64,000 nucleotides of DNA from an uncultured Pseudomonadales bacterium. GTDB lineage: Bacteria; Patescibacteriota; Microgenomatia; UBA1400; CAYXSR01. The notes below the pieces were generated by a model. The model was given only the letters and a program-made list of their open reading frames with translations, searched no databases and was not told the origin of the DNA. The stretch spans positions 14,784 through 78,783 of the forward strand of contig CAYSEI010000005.1 of the NCBI GenBank assembly GCA_964430265.1. Reading direction: 5' to 3'. Of the stretch, positions 1-17,204 are shown in pieces. Both the position numbers and the translations under genes were made by a program. How positions within the stretch are numbered: the first letter of the stretch is position 1; the number at the start of each line of letters is the position of its first letter.

Positions 1-760
1 ATTCAATTAAATTGATTAGGTGCTGACGTATGATAAAAACTATATATTTTTCTTGTAACAAAACAAGAAAGCAGCTTTTATCTCATCCATAAAGGAATCA
101 GTCGTTACGGGGTTATAACGGTAGCTTGTATTTCAAGCTTGGTATAACAAAGGGTTTGACTAAATTAATAAAAGTTCCAATGCTTTTTACTCTAATTCTG
201 ATGCGAAAATACTCTTTATCTTTATTAAGTGTACTCTCAATACCAAAATTGTTTTTTAAGAACTTTATCAATCTGTTTTGTTGTTCCACACTAAACTGTT
301 GTGAATTTAGATATACTGTATTATAACTTTTACTCCCATCATCCATAAACCAAACAGCTAAAGCTAGATTATCTAAACTCAAATCCTTGGGTATAATCTT
401 CACTCCCTTCTTATAAAATTGTTTATAAAAAGGAGTTAAACTTTCTAAACTTCTAGTAAAAAACCTGTAACAATTTCTACCGTTATTAAAGTAGTATGTT
501 GGTTTTGTTCTTACTAGGTTTTTCAGCTTATTATACTTCCAGATTACTAGTTTTTTCTGCTTTAAACTGTGTGTTATTTGGAGATGTGCATTATTTTTGC
601 AACGCATATATCCATCACCCAGTAAAGTGCCGACAACAACTGAACTTTGTTCTTCCGTTAAACTTCCCACGGGATTGCCTTTTAATATTATTTCATTATA
701 GCACTAATATTAGTAAGGTTCCCCCGTTATTAGTCAGTGTTTATACAGCACTTTAATGTT
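1..760 (-). mobile_element. 23S rRNA intron (probably group I), partial, carrying a homing endonuclease ORF; inserted near the E. coli 2500 region
   Basis: rRNA similarity stops after ...ACCTCAACACATCGGGG at about 760; non-rRNA structured sequence plus the LAGLIDADG ORF follows to the window edge. Confidence 0.5.
113..670 (-). CDS. LAGLIDADG homing endonuclease (intron-encoded, within 23S)
   Basis: 185 aa ORF with motif VVGTLLGDGYM (LAGLIDADG type) and a second DDGSK motif; embedded in 23S between rRNA blocks. Confidence 0.7.
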   Translation of the reverse strand: MGSLTEEQSSVVVGTLLGDGYMRCKNNAHLQITHSLKQKKLVIWKYNKLKNLVRTKPTYYFNNGRNCYRFFTRSLESLTPFYKQFYKKGVKIIPKDLSLDNLALAVWFMDDGSKSYNTVYLNSQQFSVEQQNRLIKFLKNNFGIESTLNKDKEYFRIRIRVKSIGTFINLVKPFVIPSLKYKLPL

Positions 761-1402
761 TCCATTAAAGGTCCCCGATGTGTTGAGGTCGCGAACCGAG
801 CCGTCGATATGAACTCTTGGGCCCGACCACGCTGTTATCCCCAAAGTAGCTTTTATCCGATAAGCTCCGCACTCATCCACAGAGTGCTGGAGGATCACTA
901 AGACCGAGTTTCCTCTCAGCTCCACGAGCTTGTGTCGCTGTTAAGCATGCTTTTACCTTTACACGTCCAGCCCGATTTCCATCCGGGCCAAGCATACCTT
1001 TGTGCGCTTGCGTTACCTTTTAGCAAGCAACCTCCCCAGTTAAACTGCCCACCAAACACTGTCCCTAGACCCGTTTAGGGTCCCTGGTTAGAGACCAACC
1101 TACCAAAGAGAGGTATTCCACTGACGGACTGACAAAGTCAGCCCTCCCTCCTATTCTCGACAGTTGGTAAATTGGCCCCAATGTCAAGCTACAGTAAAGC
1201 TTTATGGGGTCTTTTTGTCCTGCAGTAAGTAGGCCGCATCTTCACGGCCATTTCAATTTCACCGAGTCTATTTCCAAGACAGCTTCCAAGTCGTTAAACC
1301 TTTCATGCACGTCGGAACTTACCCGACACAGTTCTGTTACTTTATGACCCAAAAATTGGGCGGCATACTGTTTCCAGTATGCTCTACATGTCGCCATGTA
1401 GC

Positions 1403-2299
1403 TCAGACTATATCTTTCCAAATACTTTTAAAAGTCTTTGGACTTGGCGTATAGTCGTTGAGGATCCAGTGCAATCTTGAAATTCTTTTCCTCATTTTCT
1501 TCAGTTTAGAAGGATAAAGACAGCAAAAAATCTCTAGTGCTTTTTGCACTTCATTTTTGCTGTTAATTTCAAAGTGAAGCATTTTTTCCTTCACCCTTTT
1601 GTGTATATGACCCATTTTGAGAAAATCTTTAAAAAGATTTATTATCTTTTTTTCTCTCATTGCGATTGCAAAAAATGGTTGCATATATTGACCGCTTTGC
1701 TTTAAACCTACTGAACCTTCTGCATCAAAAATTAATTGTTCATAGCTTTTAATAGGCAAAGCTGTCTTCTTTATCTTCCTAAAAAGAACTCGTATTTCTT
1801 CTAATGATTTTTGTTGCTGTTTACTTCTTTTATAAGAAGTTCTTTCTTCAAGTAATCTAATAGCTTGATTGATCAAGGCTAATTTGCTGAATGTAATATC
1901 ACCTATAATTGGCGGATATTTTCTAAAGAAAAATAAAACTTTTTTTACTTTTCTTTTACCTCTAATAGAGAGGTTATATCCTCCGTTAGTTATAGTTATT
2001 ACTCCTTCATTTTCAACAATTACTTTATTAACCTCTCCTAAAAAATCTCTATCAGAGTTACTTATAGTAATATCTGGAGTATAATAAACACCTCCAGTTT
2101 TACTTTTCCGATTAGATAATTTTAGAAGAGAACAAGAAAGTTCTCCACAACAAAAACCCGTGTAGTAAAAGAATTTCTGCGCTGTTTCCTGCTGATTGTC
2201 CGGCATGTCATTTGACATCCAATGATGGATTTTCACTTTGATATTAGTATATATCAATAGTACCATCATATACACCCGGAGGTTCCAGCATATAGCCAA
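1403..2299 (-). CDS. LAGLIDADG-family homing endonuclease, double-motif and degenerate (intron-encoded)
   Basis: 298 aa ORF inside the 23S interruption; motifs GFCCGELSC and LIFDAEGSVG resemble two degenerate LAGLIDADG repeats; the true start is probably an internal Met. Confidence 0.55.
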   Translation of the reverse strand: MAICWNLRVYMMVLLIYTNIKVKIHHWMSNDMPDNQQETAQKFFYYTGFCCGELSCSLLKLSNRKSKTGGVYYTPDITISNSDRDFLGEVNKVIVENEGVITITNGGYNLSIRGKRKVKKVLFFFRKYPPIIGDITFSKLALINQAIRLLEERTSYKRSKQQQKSLEEIRVLFRKIKKTALPIKSYEQLIFDAEGSVGLKQSGQYMQPFFAIAMREKKIINLFKDFLKMGHIHKRVKEKMLHFEINSKNEVQKALEIFCCLYPSKLKKMRKRISRLHWILNDYTPSPKTFKSIWKDIV

Positions 2300-2441
2300 G
2301 TTCTCCCTCTAAGCCTAAAGCCTAAAAGGACCCCTGTAGTGAGGTACTTCGCTCATAAAGTTATTTTATAACTTACGTAGTGTTAACCTTAAAGGTGCTT
2401 TTACGCTTTTAAAAGCTCTCTTAGTCGCCTAAGAGTTCGGA

Positions 2442-2975
2442 CTATATCTTCCCATTTCTAAAATGGGTCCTACGTATAGTCTCTGAGGATGTTAAAAACT
2501 TTGGGATTTTCTGTTCGTTTATCCGATAAGATATTCTGGCAATTTTTTCAATTCCTTCCAATTTTAAGTGGATTTTCTCTTCAACCATAAGTTGAACCAC
2601 CTCAGAAAAAAGATCAAAGGACTTTGCTTTGTAGGTCCTTAATCTATTTTTCTTAAAAAACGGAATTATCTTTTTGCTCAGATCTTTAAGACTTCTAACA
2701 CAATATCTGTGTAAGTCTTCTTTGTGATTGTCATGTCTTCGATTAATAAAAATTCTCCCACATCTAAAATAGTCTTTTACTATTTCTAATGCTTTAAAAC
2801 TCTTTTCGCCTTGCGTTAAAACAAATTCTGGCATTACTTGCCAGCCAAGACGAGTAGTACGATTTTTATTAATAGAAACACAAAAACAACCATCTCCATC
2901 GGTAAAACCAACAATCCATCCTTCAAGCTTTAACCTTTCCTGCTGATTGTCCGCACTTGAATCATTTTCACTCAT
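2442..2975 (-). CDS. LAGLIDADG homing endonuclease (intron-encoded)
   Basis: 177 aa ORF with GWIVGFTDGDGCFCVSI (canonical LAGLIDADG block); embedded in 23S. Confidence 0.75.
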   Translation of the reverse strand: MSENDSSADNQQERLKLEGWIVGFTDGDGCFCVSINKNRTTRLGWQVMPEFVLTQGEKSFKALEIVKDYFRCGRIFINRRHDNHKEDLHRYCVRSLKDLSKKIIPFFKKNRLRTYKAKSFDLFSEVVQLMVEEKIHLKLEGIEKIARISYRINEQKIPKFLTSSETIRRTHFRNGKI

Positions 2976-15511: not shown

Positions 15512-15520
15512 TGGATGTTC

Positions 15521-15592
15521 GGGCAGATAGTTCAGTGGTAGAACGCTGTCCTGATAAGACAGAGGTCGGAGGTTCGATCCCTTCTCTGCCCA
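15521..15592 (+). tRNA. tRNA-Ile (anticodon GAT), oriented opposite to the flanking rRNA genes
   Basis: GGGCAGATAGTTCAGTGGTAGAACGCTGTCCTGATAAGACAGAGGTCGGAGGTTCGATCCCTTCTCTGCCCA; cloverleaf with anticodon loop CTGATAA. Confidence 0.9.
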
Positions 15593-15625
15593 CAAAAAAA
15601 GACTCCAAATCGGAGTCTTTTTTTT
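15593..15625. terminator. Bidirectional rho-independent terminator (ends tRNA-Ile on + and 16S on -)
   Basis: A7-GACTCC-AAAT-CGGAGTC-T8: hairpin flanked by an A-run and a T-run. Confidence 0.7.
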
Positions 15626-15693
15626 ATTAGTTGACAATCTCAAAAAGCGGTAGGAAGAAATTTGCTTGTTAAAACAAGCAAAATAAACTCTTA

Positions 15694-17204
15694 GAAAGGA
15701 GGTGATCCAGCCGCTCCTTCCAGAACGGCTACCTTGTTACGACTTAGTGCTGATTACTGAGTTCGCCTTAGGGCCTCTAATGAGGTACTTCGGGCGCCCC
15801 CAGCTCTCCTCGCTTGACGGGCAGTGTGTGCAAGGAGCGAGAACGTATTCACCGCGGTCTGCTGACCCGCGATTACTACCAATTCCAACTTCATGCAGGC
15901 GAATTGCAGCCTGCAATCCGAATTGAGAATGCTTTTATGAGATTAGCTTAGCCTTGCGACATCGCAACTCATTGTAGCACCCATTGTAGGATGTGTGTTG
16001 CCCTGGACATAAGCACCATGCTGACTTGACGTCATCCCCTCCTTCCTCCCCAGTATATACTAAGGCAGTTTCTTATGATATATAACATAAGATAGGGGTT
16101 GCGTTCGTTACCCCACTTAAGGGAACGTCTCACGACACGAACTGACGACAGCCATGCAGCAGCTGTGTACCACCCTCGAAGGCGATCCACCTTTCGGTGG
16201 ACTTGCAGGTACATGTCAAGTCCAGGTAAGGTTCTGCGCTTTATATCGAATTAAACCACATGCTCCACTGGTTGTACGCTCCCCCGCCAATTCCTTTGAG
16301 TTTTAACCTTGCGGTCGTACTTCCCAGGCGTCTTGCTTAACGCGTTAGCTTACGCCACTCAATCTAAGACCGAACAGCTAGCAAGAAATGTTTACAGCTA
16401 GGACTACGCGGGTCTCTAATCCGCTTTGCTCCCCTAGCTTTCGTTCCTCAGCGTCTGGAATTGTTTAGATTTCTGCCTTCGCCCTTGGTGTTCTTCCCGA
16501 TATCCACGGATTTCACTCCTCCACCGGGAATTCCAAAATCCCCAACAATCCACTAGTCTAGCAGTTTACATTGCCTTTCCACCGTTGAGCAGTGGACTTT
16601 GACAACATACTTACCAAACCGCCTACGAACCCTTTACGCCCAATGAATCCGGATAACGCTTGCACCCTACGTTTTACCGCGGCTGCTGGCACGTAGTTAG
16701 CAGGTGCTTTCTAGAAAGGTACCGTCAAAATTTCTTCCCTCTCCACAGTAGTTTACAACCCGAAGGCCGTCATCCTACACGCGGTGTCGCTGCGTCAGCC
16801 TTTCGGCCATTGCGCAAGATTCTCGGTTGCTGCCATCCGTAGATGTAGGCCCCGTGTTTCAGTGACCTTGTGGGGGGCCACACTCTCATGCCCCCTACCC
16901 GTCGGCCTTGGTGAGCCTTTACCTCACCAACTAGCTGATAGGACGCAGGCTCCTCCCTAAGCGACTCAACAAAAGTTGAATCTTTTCCTCATAACCAAAA
17001 GGTTATGAGCGTATGTGGTATTACCCTACCTTTCAGCAGGCTATACCTCTCTAAGGGGTAGATTCCTACGCGTTACTCACCCGTCTGCCACTCCCACTAT
17101 AAATATGTTTTCTCCGAAGAGAAAACAAAAGTGGGCGTTCGACTTGCATACCTAAGACACACCGCCAGCGTTCATCCTGAGCTAGGATCAAACTCTCAGT
17201 TAAA
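15694..17204 (-). rRNA. rrs: 16S rRNA (complete, about 1.5 kb, no introns)
   Basis: Reverse complement begins near AGAGTTTGATCCTAGCTCAG (17177..17196) and ends GGATCACCTCCTT (about 15697); internal GTGCCAGCAGCCGCGGTAA and TGTACACACCGCCCGTCA equivalents are present. Confidence 0.95.

Follow-up and report, generated by a model that had tools for sequence, protein, structure and literature searches.

Do 16S and 23S rRNA genes pointing in the same direction, and held apart by a block of protein genes, form a genuine and inherited split of the usual operon, and is each of them expressed on its own? This question is raised by a locus at the beginning of a 64-kb stretch of DNA (contig CAYSEI010000005.1, positions 14,784 to 78,783, hereafter the window) with about 36% GC, whose source is a bacterium of the candidate phyla radiation (CPR), Microgenomates group. 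The answer favoured here, with a probability of about 0.8, is a genuine, inherited split rRNA locus of Microgenomates-type CPR bacteria, seemingly arranged as four transcription units on a conserved chromosomal backbone. An Rfam search of the window placed the bacterial small-subunit rRNA at 15695..17203 on the minus strand (1407 bits, model positions 1-1533, insertion-free) and the 5' end of the 23S gene at 5058 on the same strand, with the gene continuing past the window start. The two co-oriented genes are thus separated, from the 16S 3' end (15695) to the 23S 5' end (5058), by 10,636 nt, well above the 1500 bp between the closest 16S and 23S ends beyond which rRNA genes are called unlinked by Brewer et al. 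Eight open reading frames (ORFs), all on the minus strand, occupy the interval from 14897..15460 down to 5438..6130, and ARAGORN placed tRNA-Ile(gat) at 15521..15593 on the plus strand and tRNA-Ala(tgc) at 5180..5257 on the minus strand. With tRNA-Ile on the opposite strand, a terminator 3' of the 16S gene and eight intervening ORFs, the locus falls outside the definition of a canonical rrn operon. An earlier, sequence-only reading had described the two rRNA genes as co-oriented and unlinked with protein genes between them, and tRNA-Ile(GAT) as lying on the opposite strand; both descriptions agree with the Rfam, ARAGORN and ORF results.

Upstream of the 16S gene lie chromosomal genes for Fpg, a RecF-like protein, enolase, iPGM and LigT. 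The best GTDB match of the iPGM adjoining the 16S gene was found in a Ca. Woesebacteria metagenome-assembled genome (67%), and homologues of protein H, encoded last in the interval, are annotated in Patescibacteria and Ca. Beckwithbacteria records. The four nearest iPGM loci from the GTDB scan have no rRNA genes beside iPGM and are uninformative on the arrangement. The GC skew of the plus strand, measured over the first 22 kb, is continuously and strongly negative (-0.13 to -0.41), and nearly all large ORFs across the 64 kb lie on the minus strand, a bias that recalls the disparity between strands described for Ch65, a Microgenomates genome (PMC7143001).

Relatives were collected by two routes and are cited by L numbers. 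A metagenome scan with the 3'-terminal 50-mer of the 16S gene gave 99 loci with at most about 83% 16S identity (route a), and homologues of protein H gave closer relatives than the 16S route (route b). Two of them bear directly on the junctions of the window:

L180, from a different sample: G-H-leader-tRNA-Ala-23S as in the window, with proteins G and H 91% and 96% identical
L181 (16S about 87%): Fpg-RecF-like-enolase-iPGM-LigT-16S-tRNA-Ile(inverted)-A-B-x-H-tRNA-Ala-23S-5S, with a four-gene island

Ribosomal RNA genes are classic points of breakage and misjoining in metagenome assemblies, and the arrangement might accordingly be an artefact in which fragments with 16S and 23S genes were misjoined via unrelated protein genes. 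Against this, the H-leader-tRNA-Ala-23S junction recurs nearly base for base in L180, and the family-level relative L181/L182 reproduces both junctions together with the flanking enolase, iPGM and LigT genes (80%, 77% and 59% identical to those of the window, respectively, in L181). The processing stem, bidirectional terminator and leaders described below are likewise the same in L181, and the pairing of the 16S trailer with the leader, followed by a terminator common to tRNA-Ile, makes a coherent local design. Misassembly across 5260..15690, named in the sequence-only reading as the finding that would overturn it, is thus not borne out, the contigs of L180 and L181 reproducing the junctions. 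An artefact is regarded as highly improbable; judged from the independent assemblies, the split is real.

Proposed transcription units of the 16S, tRNA-Ile and 23S genes

The elements around the 16S gene and tRNA-Ile are as follows, in the direction of 16S transcription:

17410..17437, minus strand: putative 16S promoter (TTGACT-16 nt-TAAAAT with TG) that overlaps LigT at the gene's end
17306..17403, minus strand: 16S leader, in which GCTTTGAAAAAGGAGAC (17403..17387) can pair with GTCTCTTTTCAAAGC (17320..17306)
17288..17300, minus strand: boxA-like GCTCGTTGACAAT of the 16S leader (resemblance only), sharing bases with the 5' arm of the processing stem
17268..17296, minus strand: processing stem of the 16S gene, 5' arm (29-nt inverted repeat I1, 93% complementary)
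15695..17203, minus strand: 16S rRNA gene (Rfam)
15630..15658, minus strand: 3' arm of the 16S processing stem (folding and repeat finder)
15594..15624, both strands: bidirectional intrinsic terminator, a 13-bp stem between an A-run and a T-run (terminator scan)
15521..15593, plus strand: tRNA-Ile(GAT) (Rfam, ARAGORN)
15461..15520, both strands: divergent putative promoter region, 60 nt and AT-rich, between tRNA-Ile and gene A

Transcription of the first unit would start from the promoter at about 17437..17410, pass through a leader with a hairpin and a boxA-like sequence, continue through the 16S gene within its own 29-bp stem and end at the terminator 15594..15624. When leader and trailer were folded together, 29 consecutive pairs were obtained (-74.4 kcal/mol, compared with -25.2 +/- 3.1 kcal/mol for shuffles; z = -15.7), and the same stem was recovered independently by the repeat finder as I1. 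Leader and trailer usually pair into an RNase III-type stem of this kind; in the window the stem surrounds the 16S gene alone, and the terminator follows directly after it. This terminator, common to the 16S gene and to the convergent tRNA-Ile, abuts the 3' end of tRNA-Ile with its far side, and has its counterpart at the matching place in L181; the strong bidirectional terminator that the earlier reading had put directly after the 16S gene is the same 13-bp hairpin. The second unit would be tRNA-Ile, transcribed from its own extended -10 promoter (TGATAAAAT, 15501..15509, plus strand, 11 nt upstream of the gene) and running convergently into the shared terminator. Upstream of gene A lies TTGATT-17 nt-TAATAT (15496..15468, minus strand), and the region 15461..15520, in which the stretch ATTTTATCATATTTTGATTAAAA.ACAAAAAT is kept in L181, is probably a divergent promoter region for tRNA-Ile and gene A.

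In the 16S leader, the pair formed by GCTTTGAAAAAGGAGAC and GTCTCTTTTCAAAGC encloses an ATG-TAG start-stop and a hairpin with a U-run (17346..17327) that may be described as boxB-like or terminator-like. The whole layout is common to L181, the part with the hairpin and boxA is also present in L105, L083, L102 and L183, and an equivalent (C)TTTGACAAT stands at the matching place in the 16S leaders of relatives. In E. coli, rrn leaders have a boxB-boxA order, with the hairpin coming before boxA. An ATG with a stop codon directly behind it was seen in the 16S leaders of the window (17370..17375), L181 (4700..4720), L105, L083 and L183; in the window (17387..17403) and L181 leaders it stands 6 nt after GGAGAC, and the start-stop itself recurs in distant relatives. 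Two other assignments were tried and dropped: TTGACA at 17294 as the 16S promoter, which belongs to an arm of the processing stem, and the hairpin 17346..17327 as a mere LigT terminator, since it is a leader element conserved among relatives.

The elements before the 23S gene are the following:

5402..5430, minus strand: putative tRNA-Ala-23S promoter, TTGACT-17 nt-TATTCT with TG
5263..5399, minus strand: tRNA-Ala/23S leader, with GCTTTGTAAGGAGAC (5399..5385), a mini-ORF and a hairpin with a U-run
5180..5257, minus strand: tRNA-Ala(TGC) (Rfam, ARAGORN)
5152..5163, minus strand: boxA-like GCTCTTTGAAAA, between tRNA-Ala and the 23S gene

This unit would run from the promoter 5430..5402 through the leader, tRNA-Ala and the boxA-like sequence into the 23S gene and, by analogy with L181, the 5S gene. 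The leader contains a mini-ORF of 18 codons (5370..5314, minus strand) and a 9-bp hairpin with a T-run (5285..5263, minus strand; terminator scan) that ends 6 nt before tRNA-Ala, and the 5' arm of this hairpin, AGTCTCCTT (5283..5275), can alternatively pair with AAGGAGACT (5392..5384). The boxA-like GCTCTTTGAAAA is the sole exact boxA match in the window (when a single mismatch is permitted there are four sites, about five being expected by chance), and it stands at the matching place in L181, L183, L164, L166 and L177.

The promoter and leader at 5430..5402 and below are paralogous in sequence to those of the 16S gene. TTGACW-N13-15-TGGTAWWMT occurs twice in 64 kb, before the 16S gene and before tRNA-Ala (0.01 expected), as does GCTTTGWAA(N0-2)GGAGAC (0.00 expected); both patterns were derived from the two sites themselves, and these counts are supporting evidence and not an independent test. 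The exact leader motif of the window had no match in the fetched loci, and in this form it was seen only in the window and the near-identical L180.

From these sequences the 16S and 23S genes look separately transcribed. A different view would be that of one long operon, in which a transcript from the 16S promoter runs through the island into tRNA-Ala and the 23S gene, with the hairpins as processing sites. The common orientation of the eight genes and both rRNA genes is consistent with it, as are the boxA-like elements (in E. coli, boxA supports read-through) and the hairpins before the 16S gene and tRNA-Ala, which need read-through under any model. It is, however, countered by the 13-bp GC-containing hairpin with its U-run right after the 16S processing stem, by a tRNA gene transcribed head-on beyond this hairpin, and by a strong promoter-like site with the 16S-type leader motif before tRNA-Ala, whose equivalents in relatives are near-consensus (TTGACA-17-TATAAT). 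A single operon is thus considered unlikely, and separate units are preferred. The sequence-only reading had suggested that the two rRNAs are now under separate promoters. Separate transcription is favoured by the terminator, the convergent tRNA-Ile, the stem around the 16S gene only and the duplicated promoter and leader, but the tRNA-Ala promoter and leader are also found in intact operons and are probably older than the split. The terminator-like hairpin that had been noted before tRNA-Ala and the 23S gene is where it was said to be, but it does not just stand ahead of a separate unit: it lies 3' of the only plausible 23S promoter, and the 23S transcript must pass through it.

The leader before tRNA-Ala in relatives

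In about 20 relatives, with intact or split operons, the approximately 200 nt before tRNA-Ala hold the same series of elements, namely a near-consensus promoter (TTGACA-17-TATAAT or TATACT), then AAGGAGA(C), an ATG that does not vary, a long hairpin (about 100 nt) with the mini-ORF inside it, and a terminator-like hairpin with a U-run. The leader was found in L094, L102, L132, L136, L154-L156, L178, L118, L095, L112 and L179, and further in L150, L090, L139, L143, L164, L166, L181, L183, L187, L189, L191 and L193. Since promoter and leader stand before tRNA-Ala in relatives with intact operons, the 23S promoter probably predates the split. Two covariance models (R1 and R2) were used for the leader, the first built from eight close sequences with a hand-annotated seed. 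The first model located the remaining leaders at the expected place, and the second gave E-values of 1e-10, 4e-8, 6e-7, 5e-5 and 5e-3 in the protein-route loci L183, L193, L187, L189 and L181, respectively. The near-identical leader of L180 scored 19.5 bits (E 0.27), and weak matches to R2 were obtained for the 16S leaders of the window (18.5 bits, E 0.44) and L181 (E 0.34).

The structure was examined in several ways. When the leaders were simply aligned with MAFFT, RNAalifold returned no pairs. In an alignment fitted to the model, and thereby leaning towards structure, the pairs were kept in 90.4% of cells, compared with 77.4% in shuffles and 42-56% when slid, and 35 of the 42 pairs showed compensatory changes. 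GGAGA can pair with the 5' arm of the terminator in all 20 leaders examined, the window included, with a mean duplex energy of -12.2 kcal/mol compared with -4.7 +/- 2.3 kcal/mol for shuffled partners; partners from other leaders reach -10.0 kcal/mol because the GGAGA/UCUCC core is shared. Minimum-free-energy folds alternate between two leader states among the homologues. The ATG opens an ORF of 16-24 codons in 25 of 25 leaders, compared with 12-16% in off-frame or shuffled controls, with 12-17 nt between GGAG and the ATG; the peptide shows little conservation, and L156 tolerates one frameshift. No family of Rfam 15 matches the leader region.

A terminator between promoter and gene, a competing upstream segment and a structure backed by covariation are among the features expected of an attenuator, and the tRNA-Ala leader may hypothetically be attenuator-like. 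As a more tentative proposal, and one that is possible rather than probable, the leader would be an undescribed cis-regulatory RNA of Microgenomates-type CPR bacteria, an attenuator for the 23S and 5S genes independent of the 16S gene, which might sense the availability of ribosomes through their binding or translation at the SD-like GGAGA/mini-ORF. If this were true, the presence of the leader inside intact operons would explain why the 16S and 23S genes were uncoupled repeatedly in this clade, and always upstream of the leader.

Gene cluster and proposed history of the spacer

The ways in which the spacer is arranged in relatives are listed below, the first four rows from route a and the others from route b:

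Canonical 16S-Ile-Ala-23S: L164, L139, L094, L132, L102 and others
1-4.4 kb between tRNA-Ile and tRNA-Ala: L136, L095, L090, L131, L179, L143, L120
Inverted tRNA-Ile, then tRNA-Ala-23S, with no large island: L177, L137, L150
tRNA-Ile, then 6-11 kb with no 23S: L124, L096, L122, L146
L183: A-B-466aa-16S-F-G-H-Ile-Ala-23S-5S
L187: 16S-G-H-Ile-Ala-23S
L191: 16S-353aa-G-H-Ile-Ala-23S
L189: 16S-H-toxin/antitoxin-Ile-PP2C-RpiA-Ala-23S
L193: G-H-Ile-Ala-23S, the contig stopping short of the 16S gene
L166: 16S-...-H-Ile-Ala-23S
L184, a Beckwithbacteria genome whose operon is canonical: Fpg-RecF-like-610aa-437aa-G-H, free of rRNA genes

The eight protein genes of the window, all on the minus strand, were characterized as follows:

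14897..15460: gene A, 187 aa; N-terminal membrane or signal segment; orthologues in L181 (46%) and L183 (32%)
13408..14892: gene B, 494 aa; glycoside hydrolase family 39 (GH39)-like (PF01229, 2e-20); orthologues in L181 (60%) and L183 (53%)
11971..13389: gene C, 472 aa; dockerin-like at its C-terminus and paralogous to D
10014..11930: gene D, 638 aa; paralogous to C
9032..9955: gene E, 307 aa; cohesin domain (PF00963, 1e-8)
6772..9039: gene F, 755 aa; MopE-type motif, weak dockerin match; 38% to an 815-aa gene of L183
6136..6759: gene G, 207 aa; 91% identical to that of L180, 27-28% to those of L183 and L184
5438..6130: gene H, 230 aa; cohesin-like, ending in LPESG and a membrane anchor

All eight proteins begin with a hydrophobic segment. 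C and D stand in tandem as paralogues, their dockerin-like C-termini being nearly identical, as is also evident from a 119-nt repeat (D4, 86% identical), and gene F holds four tandem internal repeats of 192 nt (8069..8776). The cohesins in E and H, the dockerin-like ends of C and D, the LPESG anchor of H and the GH39-like B suggest a cohesin-dockerin surface assembly, and the third unit would encode membrane-anchored or secreted cohesin/dockerin-like proteins and a GH39-like enzyme.

A recent mobile island inserted into a canonical spacer, for instance by an integrase that targets tRNA genes, was considered as the origin of this block. The block is flanked by tRNA genes, homing endonuclease genes are abundant in the locus, and relatives carry other cargo at the junction (a toxin-antitoxin pair, PP2C and RpiA in L189; a metallophosphatase-like ORF in L150). 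Nevertheless, Pfam scans (including E <= 1) found no integrase, transposase or recombinase among the eight proteins, a repeat search of 5000..17500 found no att-like or tRNA-3'-derived direct repeats at the borders, and there is no compositional break, GC content (0.33-0.43) and negative skew matching the flanks and the remaining window. Moreover, a homologous cluster stands beside Fpg and the RecF-like gene with no rRNA gene in the Beckwithbacteria genome, and parts of the cluster occupy the same spacer position in relatives with 76-81% 16S identity. A mobile island is therefore judged decidedly unlikely; a recent foreign insertion is not supported, and the genes belong to the conserved, resident chromosomal complement of the clade.

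In L189 the toxin-antitoxin pair (10790..11346) lies between H and tRNA-Ile, and the genes for a PP2C phosphatase and ribose-5-phosphate isomerase (11731..13974) lie between tRNA-Ile and tRNA-Ala, so that both junctions of the old spacer accept unrelated genes. A further observation, from L150, L177, L085, L118 and L146, concerns the palindrome CCTGCCTGCCGGCAGGCAGG, or a one-base variant of it, which interrupts tRNA-like genes and breaks the primer-site region at the 16S 5' end, between GAGTTTGATCC and CTGGCTCAG, in several metagenome contigs; in L146, three tandem copies of the interruption lie upstream of the 16S gene. It could be an artefact of assembly or library, or a small mobile palindrome, and it is absent from the window.

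The inherited split is instead read as the product of several steps. H directly precedes the tRNA-23S unit in relatives and lies between the 16S gene and this unit in L183, L187, L189, L191 and L166, accompanied by G in L183, L187 and L191. The split is evidently old, being common to lineages with only 76-81% 16S identity. In a neighbour-joining tree built on the final 600 nt of the 16S gene, the canonical L164 was nearest to the window, and the loci with an inverted tRNA-Ile, which in L177, L137 and L150 is found with no large island, were scattered. The tRNA-Ala-23S unit would already have had its own promoter and leader inside an intact operon, so that separation of the 16S gene from it was tolerated; the G-H surface-protein genes would have been placed between the two long ago. 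Specific to the lineage of the window and L181, as far as the compared loci tell, are the relocation and inversion of tRNA-Ile beside the 16S gene and the expansion of the cluster, which would have grown by addition and by duplication of C and D. Two nested inversions may have brought tRNA-Ile to its position. The sequence-only reading had proposed that an ancestral 16S-tRNAIle-tRNAAla-23S operon was split by insertion or inversion. The locus is indeed a derived, split form, L164 and other relatives being canonical, but the event was neither particular to this genome nor a fresh insertion, given the design shared with L181 and the presence of H or G-H in distant relatives.

Several points weigh against a split locus of four units. 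Only a single 64-kb window is in view, and a second rRNA copy might lie elsewhere in the genome. The promoters and terminators are consensus matches in the sequence, and promoter-like sites in the region are no more numerous than in shuffles. In neither rRNA unit is there room for a promoter between the leader hairpin and the gene, so that both units must read through a terminator-like hairpin 3' of the promoter assigned to them. Termination at these hairpins would have to be weak or regulated; otherwise the promoters have been placed wrongly. The tRNA-Ala leader of the window itself, too divergent for the covariance models, appears in the match list of neither (R1, E <= 10; R2, E <= 5). Lastly, the order of events is drawn from neighbour-joining trees of 16S fragments and from synteny rather than from a robust phylogeny, and the inverted tRNA-Ile is scattered on the 16S tree.

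Introns in the 23S gene and comparison with known systems

The 23S gene is interrupted by three LAGLIDADG-encoding introns, putatively of group I, which are absent from the earlier reading and would have to be removed during maturation. Its parts, all on the minus strand, are:

3067..5058: exon 1, as far as about E. coli U1931
2354..3066: putative group I intron 1, site ~L1931; LAGLIDADG_1 ORF 2442..2975 (PF00961, 1.8e-20)
2342..2353: mini-exon AGCGAAGUACCU, 12 nt; L181 has the corresponding 10 nt, intron-free there
1329..2341: putative group I intron 2, site ~L1943; LAGLIDADG_1 ORF 1403..2299 (PF00961, 7e-8)
786..1328: exon 3, to about E. coli 2500
1..785: intron 3, site ~L2500, cut by the window start; LAGLIDADG_2 ORF 113..670 (PF03161, 1.3e-38)

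The Intron_gpI model matched intron 1 (36.8 bits, E 3e-7) and intron 2 (31.2 bits, 1e-5) below its gathering score of 50, the matches ending at 2418 and 1384, and gave no match for the truncated intron 3. At the boundaries of introns 1 and 2, U is the last base of the 5' exon and G the last base of the intron. The exons were fixed by comparison with the 23S gene of L181, window 5053..3065 corresponding to L181 1..2004 and window 1328..785 to L181 2015..2560; L181 is collinear across the first two sites with no insertions there, has an insertion at the ~2500 site too, and carries a 5S gene after its 23S gene. The last ~400 nt of the window's 23S gene and the 5S gene lie outside the window. The full-length Rfam match (726..5058) covers 4333 nt for a model of 2925 positions, of which the last ~400 are not really aligned; its 3' end was rejected as spurious, good alignment ending near 785 according to sub-region scans and L181, and was miscalled because of the third intron. 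The earlier placement of the 23S gene as extending beyond position 1 ('<1') is right, intron 3 reaching base 1. Automatic rRNA annotation can thus miscall the 3' end of an intron-rich 23S gene, as Rfam did here.

Group I introns with LAGLIDADG genes were reportedly found in CPR 23S rRNA by Brown et al. in 2015. Introns in CPR rRNA genes are now well documented (Tsurumaki et al. 2024, PMC11270868), and those of the window resemble the CPR 23S introns of that study in their clustering in the 3' half, in the LAGLIDADG_1 at 1931 and in the occurrence of several per gene; the site numbering used here is approximate and may not equal its site list. Unlike the CPR introns of that study and the 23S introns of Coxiella burnetii, two of those found here are separated by a 12-nt exon, and the ~2500 site carries LAGLIDADG_2. 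Among the relatives, the 16S gene of L181 has an insertion (6356..7105) directly behind AAGTCGTAA, close to the 3' end of the gene, that carries a LAGLIDADG_3 ORF, and the final ~50 nt of the gene come after this ORF; the 16S gene of the window is without insertion. In L132, group II intron domains (Rfam group-II-D1D4-1 and D1D4-3), which have been reported for CPR, lie inside the 16S gene (590..895). Weak Rfam matches (Phe_leader, E 0.69; lysM-TM7; snoRNAs) were taken as chance.

The locus adds one well-resolved example to the unlinked rRNA genes of CPR bacteria and to the Microgenomates protein genes between spacer tRNAs. In this clade genes have repeatedly been gained, tRNAs inverted and the 16S gene relocated at the old 16S-23S spacer, and throughout the tRNA-Ala-23S-5S unit retains a promoter of its own together with the structured leader. 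The large-subunit half may have been autonomous in its transcription beforehand, which would make the break-up of the operon harmless and offers a testable reason for it. Long-amplicon methods that span the 16S gene, the internal transcribed spacer and the 23S gene will miss such organisms.

Rickettsia, Thermus, Helicobacter and others have separate 16S and 23S-5S units, far apart and with independent promoters, in single or few rRNA copies and, in several cases, in small genomes; we know of none among them in which spacer tRNAs are retained as markers of the old junction. These three genera are listed among the taxa with unlinked rRNA genes, which are widespread, phylogenetically conserved and reported for Patescibacteria/CPR as a rich clade (Brewer et al., 10.1101/705046; ISME J 2020). 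The 16S-23S distance of the window, above 1500 bp, agrees with that set; unlike the survey, which has classes by distance only and a mean separation of ~410 kb in complete genomes, the genes described here are 10.6 kb apart, co-oriented, and each retains one spacer tRNA. A promoter inside an rrn operon is known from E. coli, where the sigma-70-type riRNA promoter drives the spacer genes downstream of it independently of the main rrn promoters (Takada et al. 2016, PMC5179076). It lies inside the 16S gene, with transcripts that end near the 23S start, whereas the putative promoter of the window stands before tRNA-Ala, would be the only plausible source of the 23S transcript, and is followed by a leader with a mini-ORF and a terminator/antiterminator alternative. 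Closest to the window is Candidatus Chazhemtobacterium aquaticus Ch65, in whose complete genome trnI and trnA are parted by two protein genes (Kadnikov et al. 2020, PMC7143001). Both are CPR/Microgenomates bacteria with trnI-GAU and trnA-UGC between the 16S and 23S genes and protein genes intervening, and Ch65 has single rRNA genes and a LAGLIDADG intron in its 23S gene. Unlike Ch65, the window has eight inserted genes rather than two and three introns rather than one, and its tRNA-Ile converges on the 16S gene with a shared terminator, an inversion of trnI being unreported for Ch65. The split locus is a larger, rearranged example of an already published phenomenon, instructive rather than surprising.

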